Shown here piece after piece: positions 345 through 58,728 of a stretch of 60,975 nt of DNA (position 1 is the first letter of the stretch; each line of letters starts with the position of its first letter). Origin of the DNA: an uncultured Clostridia bacterium (lineage in GTDB: Bacteria > Bacillota > Clostridia > TANB77 > CAG-508); contig CANQCT010000001.1 in the NCBI GenBank assembly GCA_947589835.1, positions 1-60,975 of the forward strand. The letters are read 5' to 3'. The translations under genes were made by a program, and so were the position numbers. The notes under the pieces were generated by a model. The model saw nothing but the letters and a program-made list of their open reading frames with translations, was not told the origin of the DNA and did not search any database.

Positions 345-462
345 AGCTTAAATAGTACTATTTTTCGCAGTTTTGAAAGGTCCCGTTCTGACTTTGCTTC
401 TTTGAGCTTGCTTACCTAGCAACGGGCATTTGAAAAACAAGAAAACTAGTACTATTTAAGCT
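345..462 (+). repeat. Palindromic ~115-nt repeat, copy 1 (canonical strand +)
   Basis: AGCTTAAATAGTACTA...TAGTACTATTTAAGCT outer stem. Conserved core TTTTTCGCAGTTTTGAAAGGTCCCGTTCTGACTTTGCTTCTTTGA...GCAACGGGCATTTGAAAAACAAGAAAACTAGTACTAT. Sits between convergent gene ends. Confidence 0.9.
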
Positions 463-513
463 AGTTAGTTATAAGACTACTAACTAGCAACTTTTATTTA
501 CTTATAATAAATG

Positions 514-2523
514 CTAAAATTCTCTTTCAAATCCTATTGTTACTTTGAATAAATCACCATCTAAGTAAATGTGGAATTTTCCACCTTGAAGTTCTGTTAA
601 ACTTGATGCTATTGAAAGTCCAAGTCCGCTTCCTTCTGTATTTCTAGAAGCTTCGCCTCTAACAAATCTTTGCATTAACTCATCTGCTGAAATATTTAGC
701 TTTTCTTGTGAGATATTTTTCATTTGAATTACTACACTTTTTTTCTGTGCCACAACATCTAAGTAAACTCTAGTGTTTTCCATTGCGTATTTGGCTGCAT
801 TTGAATAAATATTTTCTAGTACTCTGTATAAATATCTTCCGTCTGCGGTTATCATAATAGGTGTTTCTGGAAGTGTCATTATTTCTTCTAATTTGCGTTC
901 TTTAAATTTATCTTCAAATTCGCCAGAAACTTGTTTTACTAGTTCTACAACATCAAGCTTTTCCATTTTTAATTTTATATTTCCAGATGATGCTTTTGAA
1001 GCTTCTACTAAGTCTTCTGTTAATCTTTTTAATCTTTGTGATTTATTATCTAATATCATTAAATATTCTGTACATTTTTCATTTGGCATTTTTTCTTTTT
1101 TTAGTAAATCTACATAGTTTATAATAGATGTAAGTGGTGTTTTAATATCGTGTGATACATTTGTAATTAACTCTGTTTTTAGTCTTTCGCTTTTTAAACT
1201 TTCATTTACAGCATTTGATAATCCTCCTGCTATGTCTTGTATATAAATGCTAAGCTCTTTTAATACTCCTTTTTGTTCATTTGGATTTAATTGTATGTTT
1301 ATATTTCCTTCATATATGCTTTTTAGGGCTTTCCTTATTTTTTCAAATTCTCTTAGCCTGCTAAATAAGTACCAAAAGCTTAAAAAGCCAAGTGCAAGTA
1401 AAAATATGGCATATATAAAAGGCTGCCTTGTTTGAAACATTCTTGCTGTAAAGAAAAATCCTAAAATGCAAAATAGTCCATAAAATAATATTAATTTAGT
1501 TACAATATTTCGGTTATCTATTACTGATTTTGCTCCTTTAAATATTGAATACGCAATTGTTGTTTTTATTAATGTGTCTGATTTTAGCCTTTTTACAATG
1601 GTTTCTAGCATTAAAATTAATGTTAAATATATACATAATACTCCTGCTAAAATTCCTATAATTAAAAACATTGTAACTGGTATTTCAATAGATATAGAGC
1701 AAAGTAAAAATCCAAAATATATTAATATAATTCCTATTAAAATTACTATTTCTATTTTCCATTTATCAAACCAATTTAAGTATACTTCTCCTTCTTTTTT
1801 AGTTTTTCCTATTCCTCGTAATATTAAAGCTAAACATATTGCTAATGCAATTAATGAAACTATTATTAATACTGGTGCCATTTTATATGTTGTTATAATT
1901 AAATTATATAAAAATTCATTTTTAGCAAAATCATCATTGTATGGAAGATTGTTTACTAAAGTAGTATATATTTCAAATTCTTCTCCGGAATTATCAATTG
2001 TAGCAAATGTTGATTCATATTTAATATTTTCCATTGTTAAACTTGAAAAATTAGTATCAATTTCTTTATTTGCATAATTCCAGTATTTAGTATTCACACG
2101 TAGTGTTTGTTTTATTTCATTTATAGTATCTGTTTGCATTGTGTGGCCCACGTTAGTAGTTGCAATTCCTTCTTTTTTATTTATTATTAAATATACAAAA
2201 TTGCCTTCTACAGAAGTGTTGTAATATATTGTGCCAGTTTTTCCATTTATATTGGTTTCTTGTGTATCGGTAAAGCCACCTTCAAACTTTTTTCCAGATA
2301 CAAAATTAAATTTTCTTTGAATGCTATTTAAGTAATCTTTTTTAAATGATTGTGTATCATAATATGAATTTGCATATACAAGACTTTTATCTGTTTTTTC
2401 TACAAATATTACTGATATAGCAGATATTACTAATATAGCAAGAAAAATTGGAGCTAATATGTATGAAATATTTTTTAGTATTTTTGGTATGCATATAGAT
2501 TTTTGTTTCATTTTAAATTTCAT
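514..2523 (-). CDS. Sensor histidine kinase (extracytoplasmic N-terminal domain, multiple TM helices, HisKA + HATPase_c)
   Basis: 669-aa ORF. H-box SHDIKTPLTSIINYVDLL and G-boxes GSGLGLSIA. Adjacent to a response regulator. Confidence 0.9.
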   Translation of the reverse strand: MKFKMKQKSICIPKILKNISYILAPIFLAILVISAISVIFVEKTDKSLVYANSYYDTQSFKKDYLNSIQRKFNFVSGKKFEGGFTDTQETNINGKTGTIYYNTSVEGNFVYLIINKKEGIATTNVGHTMQTDTINEIKQTLRVNTKYWNYANKEIDTNFSSLTMENIKYESTFATIDNSGEEFEIYTTLVNNLPYNDDFAKNEFLYNLIITTYKMAPVLIIVSLIALAICLALILRGIGKTKKEGEVYLNWFDKWKIEIVILIGIILIYFGFLLCSISIEIPVTMFLIIGILAGVLCIYLTLILMLETIVKRLKSDTLIKTTIAYSIFKGAKSVIDNRNIVTKLILFYGLFCILGFFFTARMFQTRQPFIYAIFLLALGFLSFWYLFSRLREFEKIRKALKSIYEGNINIQLNPNEQKGVLKELSIYIQDIAGGLSNAVNESLKSERLKTELITNVSHDIKTPLTSIINYVDLLKKEKMPNEKCTEYLMILDNKSQRLKRLTEDLVEASKASSGNIKLKMEKLDVVELVKQVSGEFEDKFKERKLEEIMTLPETPIMITADGRYLYRVLENIYSNAAKYAMENTRVYLDVVAQKKSVVIQMKNISQEKLNISADELMQRFVRGEASRNTEGSGLGLSIASSLTELQGGKFHIYLDGDLFKVTIGFEREF

Positions 2524-2543
2524 CCCCTTCTTTGATTATAAGT

Positions 2544-3257
2544 TTAGCCTTCAGTTAGGTTTTCTATTTTATATCCTATTCCCCATATTACTTTTAAGTA
2601 TTTAGGCTCTTTTGGATTTATTTCTATTTTTTCTCTTATGTGTCTTATATGTACTGCAATAATATTTTCTGCACCATAACTTTCTTCTTCCCATACATTT
2701 TCATATATTTGTTCTATTGAATATACAATTCCTTTATTTTTGGTTAAAAATTTTAAAATGTTGTATTCTGTTGGAGTTAGCTTTACTTCTTTTCCTTCTA
2801 CAATTACTTGCTTTGTGTTGTCATTTATAATTAAATCGCCTGAGTGGTAAATGTTGTCTCCTTTTTGCATTTTATCTGCAATAGTGCCTAAGTGAGTGTA
2901 TCTTCGTATTTGTGAATTTACTCTTGCAATTAGTTCTAATGGATTAAATGGTTTTGTAATATAGTCATCTGCTCCATTATTAAGGCCTGCAATTTTATCG
3001 TAATCTTCAGATTTTGCAGATAGCATTATAATAGGAATTGATTTGTTTTTACGAATTAAATTGGCTGTACTAATGCCATCTAATTTTGGCATCATTACAT
3101 CTAATAAAATTAGGTGTATGTTTGGGTTGTTTTCTACTATTTTAAGTGCTTCTGCTCCGTTATAGGCTTTTAAAATATTGTAGCCTTCTTTTGATAAATA
3201 TATTTCAACTGCTTTTACAATTTCTTTGTCATCATCTACTACTAGTATATTGTACAT
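2544..3257 (-). CDS. OmpR/PhoB-family DNA-binding response regulator
   Basis: 237-aa ORF. Receiver motifs VVDDD, LLDVMMPKLDG, KPF. C-terminal winged helix LTPTEYNILKFL...IWGIGYKI. Confidence 0.92.
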   Translation of the reverse strand: MYNILVVDDDKEIVKAVEIYLSKEGYNILKAYNGAEALKIVENNPNIHLILLDVMMPKLDGISTANLIRKNKSIPIIMLSAKSEDYDKIAGLNNGADDYITKPFNPLELIARVNSQIRRYTHLGTIADKMQKGDNIYHSGDLIINDNTKQVIVEGKEVKLTPTEYNILKFLTKNKGIVYSIEQIYENVWEEESYGAENIIAVHIRHIREKIEINPKEPKYLKVIWGIGYKIENLTEG

Positions 3258-57322: not shown

Positions 57323-57399
57323 TTAATTTCTCCTTTTTTATTTAATTTATTTTTTATTTTTATTTTTTAATTTTTTATAATTAATTATTTTTTTATTTA

Positions 57400-58481
57400 T
57401 TATTTTTCTAAAGCTGTAAGTGCTATTTCTAAAATTTTATCTAATTGCTCTTGTGTGTAATTTTGATTATTTATTTCATTTAAAAATTCTTTTATAAAAA
57501 TTCCTTTTAATGTATAGTCATTTGACATTTCTTCTAAATTATAATTTAATTTTGTTTCGTTTTTTATTTTTATAATATTTTTTCTATTTATTATTTTATA
57601 TAAATTTAAAACTTCTATTTCAAATTTTCTTTTTCCAATTAAAATTACTTTGTACAAATAATTTTCTTTTAATTCTAAATTATTTATTTTTTGTATTAAT
57701 TCATCTAAATCATTTATGTTTGTTACATCTAATTCTATTTCTGCAAATTCTTTATTATCTACTGGAATAAATGCTATTTGTAATTTTTTATTTTCTATAT
57801 TTCCTACTATAAAGCCATGTTTTCCTAATTCATCAAATCCCATTGATATTGTAGAACCGTGGGTAAACTATATTTTGATTTGGCTCTGTATTATAATCTG
57901 GTTTATGAATATGGCCGAAGTGCAACATAATCAAATCCTATTTGTTTTAGTTTATTTTTTGAAATTGGATTATATTGCAAGCTTGCTTTATCACTTGCAC
58001 TTAATGTTCCATGTGTTATTAAAATATTAATTTTATTTTTATTTTCTATTTGTATATTTTCTACATTTAAATTTTCACAATAAAAATTGTCAAATCCTAC
58101 TCCATATATATCTGCTTCTTGTGTTTGTACTTTTTCTATTTTTGAAGTAAATATTTTTACATTTTCACTCCAATAGAAATTTGAGTACATAGAATTTTTA
58201 ATATATGGGTCATGATTTCCTGGTGTAATAAATATTTTGGTTTGTGGTATTTCTTTAAATAGGTTATTAATATATTCGATTGTGCTTTTTCTTATATAGG
58301 CATGTTCATAAAAATCACCAGCAATAAAAAAATATTCTATTTCATTTTGTTTTATATATTCAATTATTTTTTTGAAAATTTCTCTTTGATCTAGTCTTCT
58401 AATTTTTCCGAATTCACCTTTTGAATTTAAGGTTGTAAATGGTGTATCGAAATGCATATCTGCAATATGTATAAATTTCAT
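57400..58481 (-). CDS. Metallophosphoesterase/exonuclease (YhaO/SbcD-like); frame interrupted twice at in-frame CGG codons (57917-57915 and 57859-57857)
   Basis: ORF 57903..58481 has MKFIHIADMHFD...GDFYEH...PGNHDP...THG and ends ...FDYVAL-RPYS*. A +1 shift gives AL-G-HIHKPDYNTEPNQNIVYP. A second +1 shift gives G-STISMGFDELGKHGF..., continuous with ORF 57400..57843. Confidence 0.8.
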
Positions 58482-58606
58482 TTTTATTATTTTTCCTTTC
58501 TGTACCCGCTTCGTTTTATTTTAATTTTTATTTTAACTTTTATTTATTCTATATTATTTTATTAAACCAGTCAACTGCATTATAAATTATCACTTGTTTT
58601 TAGCTA

Positions 58607-58728
58607 AGAGCTTTAATAGTACTATTTTTTTGCAGTTTTGAAAGGTTCCGTTCTGAACCTTCCTCATTGAACTTGCTGCCTAGCAACGGGCATTTGAAAA
58701 ACAAAAAAACTAGTACTATTAAAGCTCT
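58607..58728 (+). repeat. Palindromic ~115-nt repeat, copy 10
   Basis: AGAGCTTTAATAGTACT...AGTACTATTAAAGCTCT perfect 17-bp outer stem. The core is slightly diverged (GGTTCCGTTCTGAACC). Confidence 0.9.

Follow-up and report, generated by a model that had tools for sequence, protein, structure and literature searches.

What are the rod-like repeats of approximately 115 nt that recur between the genes of this uncultured Clostridia bacterium? They were examined in a 61-kb window, meaning the whole stretch of DNA that was analyzed. Ten copies lie in the window, nine of them full and one truncated. Each is intergenic under the standard genetic code, as the original prediction had it, and its positions agreed within 1-2 nt with those obtained using a repeat finder and alignment. 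A sensitive nhmmer scan of the window returned the same ten copies and no further ones. The 27-mer TTTGAAAAACAAGAAAACTAGTACTAT had nine matches at ≤1 mismatch in the window (0.00 expected) and the left 40-mer had six (0.00 expected). The density is around one core per 6 kb. The repeats are the strongly conserved, flippable central hairpin, here called the core, of a larger miniature transposon family of approximately 170-185 bp.

Six or more further species-level MAGs of rabbit-gut Clostridia carry the family too, with many of the copies at orthologous sites; 87 copies were counted in 542 kb (the window and six MAG species). The 64 MAG loci were retrieved by exact match to a 27-mer of the right core arm. 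This choice inflates the conservation of that arm and would miss heavily decayed MAG copies. The left core arm and the window copies, which were not chosen by the 27-mer, showed the same conservation as the right arm. No match to the family was found in plasmids, phages, IMG/VR, or JGI metagenomes. No Rfam covariance model hit the window at the gathering threshold, in line with the original failure to recognize a known family. Matches at E ≤ 10 were limited to rliB and mir-247, at a noise-level 15 bits.

The AT-rich sequence flanking many copies, first described as degenerate extensions, is instead an integral part of the element and consists of two arms of approximately 35 nt with terminal inverted repeats and 8-bp target duplications. 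The whole unit is non-coding and 168-186 bp long, with the ~115-bp core lying between two dissimilar ~35-nt AT-rich arms (A and B). The elements of the window are as follows.

315-491, plus strand: composite element 1; arm A 315-347, core 345-462 (canonical strand plus), arm B 460-491; target duplication TTTTATTT at 307-314 and 492-499; just 3' of the stop of a histidine-kinase gene (514-2535, minus strand).
7818-7985, plus strand: composite element 2; arm A 7818-7851, core 7850-7962, arm B shortened; in a divergent region, G5/cell-wall hydrolase gene (minus) and lemA (plus).
17575-17870, plus strand: composite elements 3 and 4; cores 17599-17712 and 17730-17842 with one shared arm pair; core 4 is a GGCGGG variant with two U·G pairs; between spoIIE and the first giant surface-protein gene.
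28277-28444, plus strand: composite element 5; core 28301-28414 (plus), arms reversed (B'...A'); target duplication ATTAATTT at 28269-28276 and ATTATTTT at 28445-28452 (7/8 match); between two giant paralogous genes.
38693-38858, plus strand: composite element 6; core 38722-38836 (plus), arms A...B, GGCGGG variant; upstream of the second giant gene.
43419-43604, minus strand: composite element 7; core 43446-43559 (minus), among the few copies sense to the neighboring genes; between mreC and mreD, ending approximately 13 nt from the mreD ribosome-binding site and start.
47389-47441, no strand given: arm-only remnant; arm A fused to arm B (ends TAGTAAC), center and core deleted.
53322-53391, minus strand: truncated copy 8; right core half and one arm kept.
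55455-55623, plus strand: composite element 9; core 55485-55597 (plus), arms B'...A'; downstream of an AAA-ATPase gene and upstream of prfA.
58577-58759, plus strand: composite element 10; core 58607-58728 (plus) with compensated changes (T30-A107).

Both cores at 17575-17870 were confirmed as copies, and the pair is the product of a 131-bp tandem duplication. The outer ends of the arms carry the terminal inverted repeats GTTACTA...TAGTAAC, which read GTTACTA(nn)TAAT...ATTA(nn)TAGTAAC in well-preserved copies. The element is flanked by 8-bp AT-rich target-site duplications, among them that of window copy 1, ATATAATG (L052), and ATTTTTTT (L033). Duplications matching at 7/8 or better were present in 6 of 12 copies compared to 6.5% in shuffled-pairing controls, and were gone from old or rearranged copies. 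A 10-bp perfect palindrome, ATAGTACTAT, flanks the core on either side and is part of a GCTnnn/nnnAGC stem. The core has no conserved ORF; every reading frame is disrupted by indels, which fall in the loop and at column 93. No T-tract and no terminator follow the hairpin; the lack of an ORF and of a T-tract had both been foreseen. By structure the unit is a MITE: short, non-coding, bearing terminal inverted repeats and target duplications, and dispersed in copies with filled and empty sites.

The original prediction had named an IS element with the same termini, together with target duplications at empty sites, as the mark of an ordinary MITE. Terminal inverted repeats, 8-bp duplications, empty or deleted sites, and species-specific insertions were all found, but no autonomous IS with GTTACTA termini was present in the window or the 64 loci (542 kb searched). 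A scan of JGI metagenomes with the arm-A terminus gave chance matches only. In the window no transposase, integrase, or recombinase gene lies nearby, and no RAYT-type gene was found in the 542 kb. The sole Y1 transposase met was a truncated IS200-type tnpA (L063 87-425) beside one copy. It is an ordinary IS200-type gene, 54% identical to an IS200 TnpA sequence, and the hairpin at its end (L063 524-543) bears no relation to the core.

Copies are gained, lost, and turned around. The L001 site is empty and the same site is filled in L033 and L050. Element 10 is missing from the orthologous L021 spacer. In a different assembly of this species (L079 2272-2417) the site of copy 8 is occupied by a full copy, and the deletion has its junction at TTGAAAnTT microhomologies. 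Copy 8 is species-specific, with a near-consensus arm A, and its site is empty in three sister species. Loss of the core leaves a solo GCTnnnATAGTACTATnnnAGC site or ragged deletions. In-situ inversion, with identical junctions, was seen at 4 of approximately 17 orthologous sites; in some cases only the core had turned, in others the entire element. Segments flip in situ because the structure is one of nested inverted repeats. The L035 orthologue of element 2 is inverted as a whole. Orthologues of element 9 have the same orientation in L021 and L034, and in L028 the whole element is inverted. Core orientation thus differs between species. No inversion polymorphism was seen across three to four assemblies of the window's species (copies 7, 9, and 10), and the core of element 7 was identical in sequence and orientation in three other metagenome assemblies of the species.

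The long imperfect hairpin was borne out. Both strands fold in this way, with z-scores of -3.4 to -6, and in copy 1 the canonical strand gave -41.1 kcal/mol compared to -37.5 kcal/mol for the other strand. The single 4x4 internal loop first drawn is replaced by a 1x1 T·C mismatch, a 3x2 loop (GCA/AA), tandem G·A/A·G, and G·U pairs. The CCCGTT/GGCGGG inner stem with two U-G pairs in copies 4 and 6 was confirmed. Covariation of the outer stem, described as perfect, is strong in the window but has exceptions: the right outer stem is gone from copy 3, a T·T mismatch occurs in copy 9, and a G·U pair in copy 5. Standard pairs filled 98.4% of pair cells. Eight pairs (55 cells) were changed on both sides, a level reached in 0 of 500 shuffles, and the inner stem showed C-G to U-A double changes in 2 + 2 copies. 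These data support maintenance of the hairpin beyond what inverted-repeat descent alone would give. The nnn covariation could alternatively stem from DNA-level templating or recombination among sub-families; chimeric copies were found (L002 and L060).

Selection on an RNA or single-stranded DNA fold had been argued from strand-specific wobble pairs. The idea is supported in part: hairpin maintenance and the compensatory changes agree with such selection, but the wobble argument itself is thin. With two fixed or nearly fixed columns left out, G·U pairs occupied 30 cells and A·C 14, or approximately 17 and 9 independent events, a weak excess. It also favors the strand antisense to the mRNAs. In 40 of 48 co-directional cases the better-folding strand runs antisense to its flanking genes, so that it is not the one carried in the neighboring mRNAs.

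Cores were antisense to co-directional neighbors in a ratio of 40:8, compared to a random 22:21 for arm orientation. The canonical strand lay on the non-purine-rich strand, a proxy for the replication strand, in a ratio of 70:15. The core bias may stem from transcription or from replication. Elements start at a median of approximately 30 nt past the upstream stop, end approximately 100 nt before the next start, and are never inside an ORF. Terminator-like and promoter-like motifs nearby were weak and inconsistent.

At orthologous sites (16 pairs, a small and partly non-independent set) core stems diverged by approximately 1.5% compared to approximately 13% for the arms, which resemble neutral flanks. 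The stems evolve approximately nine times slower than arms and flanks. Identity between orthologues was 98-99% for the core and 86-88% for arms and flanks. Between paralogues it was 92-94% for the core and approximately 70% for arms of the same type. The apex was 92% identical between orthologues compared to 79% between paralogues. The cores have thus truly occupied their sites for a long time. Core distance was 3.3% within a MAG and 3.8% between MAGs, with polymorphisms common to all species. As the same core variants occur in different species, there is no concerted evolution or within-genome homogenization. The core looks selected, not merely selfish.

The family is new but of a known kind, a MITE in uncultured rabbit-gut Clostridia that fills gaps after genes. 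Its hairpin core has probably been exapted or is protein-recognized, a function that we infer. On balance we lean, with a little more confidence than doubt, toward a two-tier palindromic MITE family of which the repeats form the central module, with the core acting as a host-recognized hairpin. The family transposed into the short spacers that immediately follow stop codons. This spread took place in the ancestor of a genus-level group of rabbit-gut Clostridia, and copies have been gained and lost since. The rates suggest that, after insertion, the arms decay neutrally and the two ~40-nt core stems, bulges and loops included, stay nearly invariant at each locus, with pairing restored by compensatory change. 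They also suggest that the core, although it flips often, keeps to a single orientation with respect to gene and replication direction. It may be a strand-specific hairpin, extruded or in single-stranded nucleic acid, that is read by a sequence-specific host factor. The behavior of such a core would resemble that of REP/BIME, REPIN, ERIC, or Correia elements: the core would offer a docking site to a protein or act in cis as a structure at the 3' ends of genes, and would not be an independent sRNA gene. A further version is less likely than not: the core as a host-maintained, strand-polar structured element with a dedicated putative protein partner, a Gram-positive counterpart of REPIN-RAYT or REP/BIME. 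If this were true, the apical loop would be variable in a site-specific manner and flip or excision would occur at the bounding palindromes.

It is unlikely that the core is a REPIN-like replicator, a single-stranded DNA hairpin copied and maintained by a single-copy HUH/RAYT-like or other domesticated transposase; such a replicator would be inherited vertically with the host lineage, and the outer MITE arms would be its older vehicle. The architecture and compensatory changes do agree with the published description of REPINs (PMC3116915), the family persists at orthologous sites across species, the strand bias tracks the replication-strand proxy, and the solo sites and the remnants left by asymmetric deletion are reminiscent of REP singlets and excision footprints. 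However, the 542 kb yielded no RAYT and just the one truncated IS200-type transposase with its unrelated hairpin, and the core lacks the GTAG/CGTC REP tag, its consensus arms beginning ATAGTACTAT. The composite has terminal inverted repeats and target duplications, which are not products of HUH transposition, and the better-folding strand is not the lagging-strand template.

A purely selfish MITE without host function is improbable. The palindromy would then be transposase-binding inverted repeats, the covariation would reflect sub-family masters plus recombination, and the conservation recent activity plus sampling bias. The inverted repeats, the target duplications, presence/absence between species, the chimeric copies, and the retrieval of loci by a core 27-mer all fit. 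Yet it is the arms, which bear the termini needed by a transposase, that decay at the neutral rate, and not the interior. Apex sequences specific to a site and common to orthologues show the cores to be old in situ, trans-species polymorphisms speak against recent sweeps, and the core orientation bias survives frequent flips, with the arms random.

Multicopy sRNA genes are very unlikely. Each copy would yield a ~115-nt rod-like RNA of the canonical strand, made from a -10-like box in the upstream arm, and the variable apical loop would supply target specificity. The canonical strand does fold slightly better in copy 1, has fixed G·U pairs and the tandem G·A motif, and has TATAAT or TATAGT boxes 6-9 nt upstream of the stem. 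However, these arm boxes are not conserved promoters, since the arms evolve neutrally, and both arm types occur upstream of the canonical strand (28 compared to 14). There is no -35 box, terminator, T-tract, or Rfam match, and the G·U excess is weak after removal of fixed columns. Genome-wide invertible switches, in which a site-specific recombinase at the bounding palindromes flips or excises the core and toggles a polar signal between genes, are barely credible: identical palindromic 10-mers bound the core so that one reaction could invert or excise it, and flipped cores and solo sites are both seen, but whole-element flips use the terminal inverted repeats and point to a general property of palindromes with no dedicated site, the sites are just ~95 bp apart, no recombinase gene lies nearby, the core has no convincing promoter or terminator, and copies 7, 9, and 10 have a fixed orientation in the assemblies of the species.

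The two-tier MITE with a host-recognized core can be set beside known systems. Integron attC sites are also imperfect palindromes right after ORFs, with a variable center, a strand-specific fold, and structure kept by compensation. This identity was rejected as R''/R' boxes arranged as in attC are lacking, the termini are opposite (GTTAC...GTAAC), and there is no integrase or cassette array, the flanking genes being housekeeping genes 6 kb apart. ERIC/IRU and RU-type elements of enterobacteria and RUP and BOX of Streptococcus are likewise non-coding, intergenic imperfect palindromes of ~100-130 bp that are conserved across related species and co-transcribed with neighboring genes, but their sequences, termini, and target duplications are unrelated. 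None of them is known to combine neutral outer parts with a center that is more conserved and can invert. REPIN-RAYT systems are described mainly in Proteobacteria. REPINs have two highly conserved inverted arms, a less conserved spacer, a predicted long hairpin in single-stranded DNA or mRNA, and frequent compensatory changes (PMC3116915). Like them, the core is extragenic, long-lived in its lineage, and a conserved inverted doublet with a variable spacer, compensatory changes, and singlet remnants; unlike them, it has no tag or RAYT in the 542 kb and is embedded in a MITE with terminal inverted repeats and target duplications. Correia elements (CREE/NEMIS) of Neisseria have 26-bp terminal inverted repeats, a TA target duplication, documented IHF sites and promoters, and RNase III processing. 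Both families are very abundant, gene-adjacent, intergenic MITEs of ~100-160 bp with long hairpins, and Correia elements too have been reported to invert (review PMC10969869). Identity with Correia was rejected on the different termini and the 8-bp rather than TA duplication. The present family differs in its GTTACTA terminal repeat, its dissimilar sequence, its Gram-positive host, a function that is inferred rather than documented, and its two-tier architecture of neutral arms around a constrained core.

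All ten copies of the hairpin repeat in the original prediction were recovered in the window by a repeat finder and by alignment, and none was found inside an ORF. The right-arm 27-mer occurred nine times in the window at ≤1 mismatch and the left 40-mer six times, compared to 0.00 expected for each from dinucleotide shuffles. A relaxed-threshold profile search of the window gave the same ten copies and one core-less remnant, and nothing more. Copy density is one per ~6 kb. Both strands fold into the long hairpin that had been described from the two halves, the plus (canonical) strand being 2-5 kcal/mol more stable than the other. 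An Rfam search of the repeat gave 0 matches in gathering and E-value modes, which agrees with its having been recognized as no known family.

The window has a G+C content of 28% and uses the standard genetic code. Mollicute code 4 was ruled out as long ORFs were obtained with the standard code. Nearly all genes are on the minus strand and have housekeeping and sporulation functions. The named genes are a two-component system, xth, tatD, spoIIE, minC, PBP2, mreBCD, radC, mecA, pcrA, and prfA. No transposase or recombinase gene was found within the window. The seventh copy, on the minus strand, is within the mreBCD cluster and lies about 13 nt away from the start region of mreD. Copies 4, 5, and 6 are located exactly at the three boundaries of giant surface-protein genes, 10571 and 10421 bp apart. 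The family flanks this 10-kb tandem duplication, and the elements may have mediated it or been carried with it.

Other features of the window
17946-38429: two tandem paralogous giant surface-protein genes of ~10.3 kb with SdrD_B, DUF11, and CarboxypepD_reg domains, ~71-77% identical (DNA) in most aligned blocks
28469-30430, 30411-31154, 31060-33399, and 33384-38429: ORFs into which the second giant gene is broken
31691-32089: array of about 16-19 units of a 21-nt (7-codon) tandem repeat in the second giant gene, where G+C content is the highest in the window (36.5%)
43607-44435: mreC, split into ORFs of 181 and 66 aa; four independent metagenome assemblies share the split, which rules out an error confined to one assembly; this is a pseudogene, a gene genuinely in two parts, or a recoding site
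58825-60975: gene annotated in a matching ENA contig with T4SS coupling-protein domains (TraG/VirD4-like)
58971-59150: tandem repeat of 36 nt (12 codons) in at least four units, inside the preceding gene

Seventy-six copies were aligned with their flanks, which were then read directly. The core runs from GCTnnnATAGTACTA to TAGTACTATnnnAGC between two AT-rich arms of ~35 nt. Arm A is GTTACTAtaTAATAGTTATAATTAcATTAAA and arm B is gGGTTAACTATAAAACCATTAAtTAGTAAC; the two form an imperfect inverted repeat with the termini GTTACTA...TAGTAAC. Nearly every copy has one arm of each type (in core orientation A...B 28, B'...A' 14, A/A 2, and B/B 0). The core is bounded by two copies of ATAGTACTAT, which is its own reverse complement. 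Each element contains two AGTACT (ScaI-type) sites. Across 542 kb of window and loci 174 of 251 AGTACT sites were of the TAGTACTA form, which is found at both core ends. Direct repeats of 8 bp were present beside well-preserved copies, and duplications matching at ≥7 of 8 positions were found for 6 of 12 copies compared to 6.5% of mismatched flank pairs. Loci from rabbit-gut assemblies of sister species, and in the case of L079 of the window's own species, are given L numbers here.

Target duplications
Window 307-314 and 492-499: TTTTATTT
L052: ATATAATG
L033: ATTTTTTT

With terminal inverted repeats, 8-bp duplications, and a total length of 168-186 bp the composite element has the structure of a MITE. 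The palindrome of ~115 nt is real, but the repeat unit is larger than had been described, being a nested palindrome with arms, termini, and 8-bp duplications.

The 27-mer was scanned against one genome per GTDB species. The matches listed comprised at least 64 loci in six species-level assemblies, all of them rabbit ("Lapin") gut MAGs labelled uncultured Clostridia. Syntenic parts of four of these loci share 84-94% identity with the window, which places the window in another species of their group. The window sequence is also present in several rabbit metagenome assemblies from ENA. This is a real and previously undescribed MITE family, and in the databases searched it is restricted to one clade of rabbit-gut Clostridia. 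To our knowledge, the literature says little about abundant REP-like or MITE-like elements in Clostridia, and we know of none in this uncultured clade.

An insertion sequence with the same termini, named in the original prediction as a possible parent, was not found in the window, the loci, or the JGI metagenomes. No autonomous IS partner was found in the window and the 64 loci, and no multicopy ORF family was seen among the loci. Scanning JGI metagenomes for the arm terminus gave seven chance promoter-like matches, all without cores. BLASTN against plasmids and phages, and a search of IMG/VR, gave no match. If a DDE transposase bounded by GTTACTAnnTAAT and 8-bp duplications were present, the family would be an ordinary MITE whose parent is known. 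A single DDE transposase (DDE_Tnp_1, L033 1846-3120) was found close to a copy, and it was rejected as its ends are unrelated. This DDE_Tnp_1/DUF772 gene is contained in a ~2.3-kb insertion relative to L001 (L033 1240-3567) that is unrelated to the repeat family. The insertion has no Rfam match and contains two unusually G+C-rich stretches (about 1300-1600, where a 49-codon ORF has a strong RBS, and about 3340-3520).

The sole Y1 transposase seen was a 5'-truncated IS200-type tnpA (L063 87-425), 54% identical to the IS200 TnpA sequence. It is followed by a perfect hairpin, CCACCGGTTATACCGGTGG (L063 524-543), unrelated to the core. The IS200-type segment (L063 1-560) adjoins the shortened arm of a copy at its would-be terminus, the junction following GTTAC. 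An IS200/RAYT link through this gene was rejected; it has its own unrelated hairpin and was judged an incidental insertion. The Y1 gene was probably inserted at the arm terminus, and from the junction an IS200/IS605 element may target the TTAC-like arm end.

The same intergenic site was occupied in different species for many copies. Comparison with relatives, as the original prediction had proposed, found both filled and empty sites. The truncated eighth copy is absent from three sister species and the tenth from L021, while a site empty in L001 is filled in L033 and L050. The family has stayed dynamic after the shared insertions. L053 carries a solo GCTAGA-ATAGTACTAT-TCTAGC within intact arms where L013 has a full core, and further solo sites are present in L004 and L022. 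Ragged deletion remnants were found in L014 and at window 47389-47441. The left half of the eighth copy was deleted via TTGAAAnTT microhomology; the full copy is kept in L079, another assembly of the window's species. Adjoining that full copy, at the site corresponding to window ~53215-53330, is an accessory insertion of ~2.5 kb (L079 2417-4947) that carries two genes, one leucine-rich-repeat-like (201 aa) and the other of 588 aa, with no Pfam hits on record. The window strain lacks both accessory genes and half of the element. Within-species variation was too little to inform on polymorphism. Orientation differed between species at 4 of about 17 orthologous sites, with identical outer junctions.

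Inversions between orthologous sites
L010/L013 compared to L029/L053: whole element, between the terminal inverted repeats
L028 compared to window copy 9/L021/L034: whole element, between the terminal inverted repeats
L035 compared to window copy 2: whole element, between the terminal inverted repeats
L047 compared to L058: core only, inside collinear arms

As ATAGTACTAT is self-complementary, the copies bounding the core are direct and inverted repeats at once, which accounts for both deletion to solo sites and inversion. A 220-aa HNH endonuclease gene (L058 3378-4040) is located in a ~0.9-kb segment absent at the orthologous place by the copy at L047 3856. The family breaks assemblies and marks strain and species differences through flips, solo sites, gains, and losses.

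In 16 cross-species orthologous pairs the left and right core stems were 98.6 and 98.0% identical, compared to 86-87% for the arms and 86-88% for the next 40 nt of spacer. The core at orthologous loci evolves roughly 9-fold slower than the arms. Among paralogues the core stems were 92-94% and same-type arms ~70% identical, against an alignment background of 56%. The MAG loci were picked by the right-stem 27-mer; the left stem was not used in this ascertainment and is equally conserved, as is the core of the unselected window copies. Apical segment identity was 92% in orthologues and 79% in paralogues, which shows that cores are old at their sites and not recent re-insertions. A core arising as a younger nested insertion is disfavored, as apical loops are site-specific and common to orthologues. 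Concerted evolution or gene conversion was rejected as the source of conservation: core distances were similar within and between genomes (3.3 and 3.8%), and an A/G variant at column 41, an A indel at column 93, and the GGCGGG stem were found in every species.

Standard pairs made up 98.4% of pair cells and eight pairs (55 cells) were changed on both sides, a level that none of 500 shuffles attained and that slid controls fell far short of. Most double changes were at the variable positions of GCTnnn/nnnAGC (UA 49, CG 11, AU 5; AU 39, GC 19, UA 7). Two inner pairs changed from C-G to U-A, in two copies each. The predicted compensatory changes are upheld, but part of the nnn covariation could come from DNA-level templating or sub-family recombination; L002 and L060 are chimeric copies. 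The unpaired features (T.C mismatch, GCA/AA loop, and tandem G.A) are invariant, which points to putative sequence-specific recognition and more than a stable stem.

The canonical strand was antisense in 40 of 48 copies between co-directional genes, while A-to-B arm direction was 22:21 relative to such genes. Retention of the core bias through frequent flips would imply selection on core orientation. The canonical strand was on the non-purine-rich (lagging-type) strand 70:15. Core polarity fits a replication rule or a transcription rule alike, informative cases being few. The element starts a median of ~30 nt past the upstream stop codon when the profile boundary is taken as its edge, with the arm end closer still, and ends ~100 nt before the next start.

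A single-stranded fold had been proposed from strand-specific G-U pairs. On the canonical strand there is a fixed G.U at column 43 in 72 of 73 copies, a U that faces one position polymorphic for A/G, and the tandem G.A; on the other strand these become C.A and pyrimidine mismatches. The excess of G.U over A.C outside those two columns (30 compared to 14 cells, about 17 compared to 9 independent events) is suggestive only. Mutation bias does not explain it, as most G.U-forming changes go from A to G, and the strand is skewed to T and C. A folded single strand, RNA or DNA, recognized by a protein is plausible on this evidence. An independent sRNA gene in each copy is unlikely, as the arm -10 boxes are neutral, either arm type can be upstream, no terminator follows the hairpin, and the favored strand is not mRNA-sense for the neighbors. 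The arm -10 boxes were rejected as promoters since they evolve neutrally, with no conservation between orthologues, and so was the TTGAAA-17-TATnnn match, which depends on the variable nnn and in most cases is without the final T. An intrinsic terminator was dismissed as no T-tract follows the long hairpin in the gene direction. The local GGTC...GACC hairpin with UUCUUUGA is weak and variable (-1 to -10 kcal/mol), and a canonical terminator is often beside the element yet distinct from it.

The unusual part is the two-tier behavior, in which the shell decays neutrally around a central hairpin that is conserved and compensated, has polarity, and can flip. From these sequence patterns we infer that the core is most likely a strand-specific hairpin recognized by a host or element-encoded factor, and that it would act in cis at gene ends. 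Arm decay, the ~9-fold slower core, and polarity kept despite flips form a natural experiment setting selfish spread against host-level constraint. If the constraint holds genome-wide, it would imply an unrecognized partner with sequence specificity and a function in cis at the ends of genes, with mRNA 3'-end handling or replication or nucleoid organization as candidates.

The defining features of every Rfam family are absent from this one, as are the box arrangement, integrase, and cassettes of attC sites. The GTAG tag of REP/RAYT systems is also absent, and no RAYT was found in the loci examined. REPINs combine a pair of conserved inverted arms with a variable spacer and show compensatory changes (PMC3116915), and in these respects are closest in anatomy to the core. 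Correia elements differ in their TA duplication and 26-bp terminal inverted repeat. They are closest in behavior, sharing the hairpin, intergenic site, and invertibility, and their inversion is a published precedent (PMC10969869).
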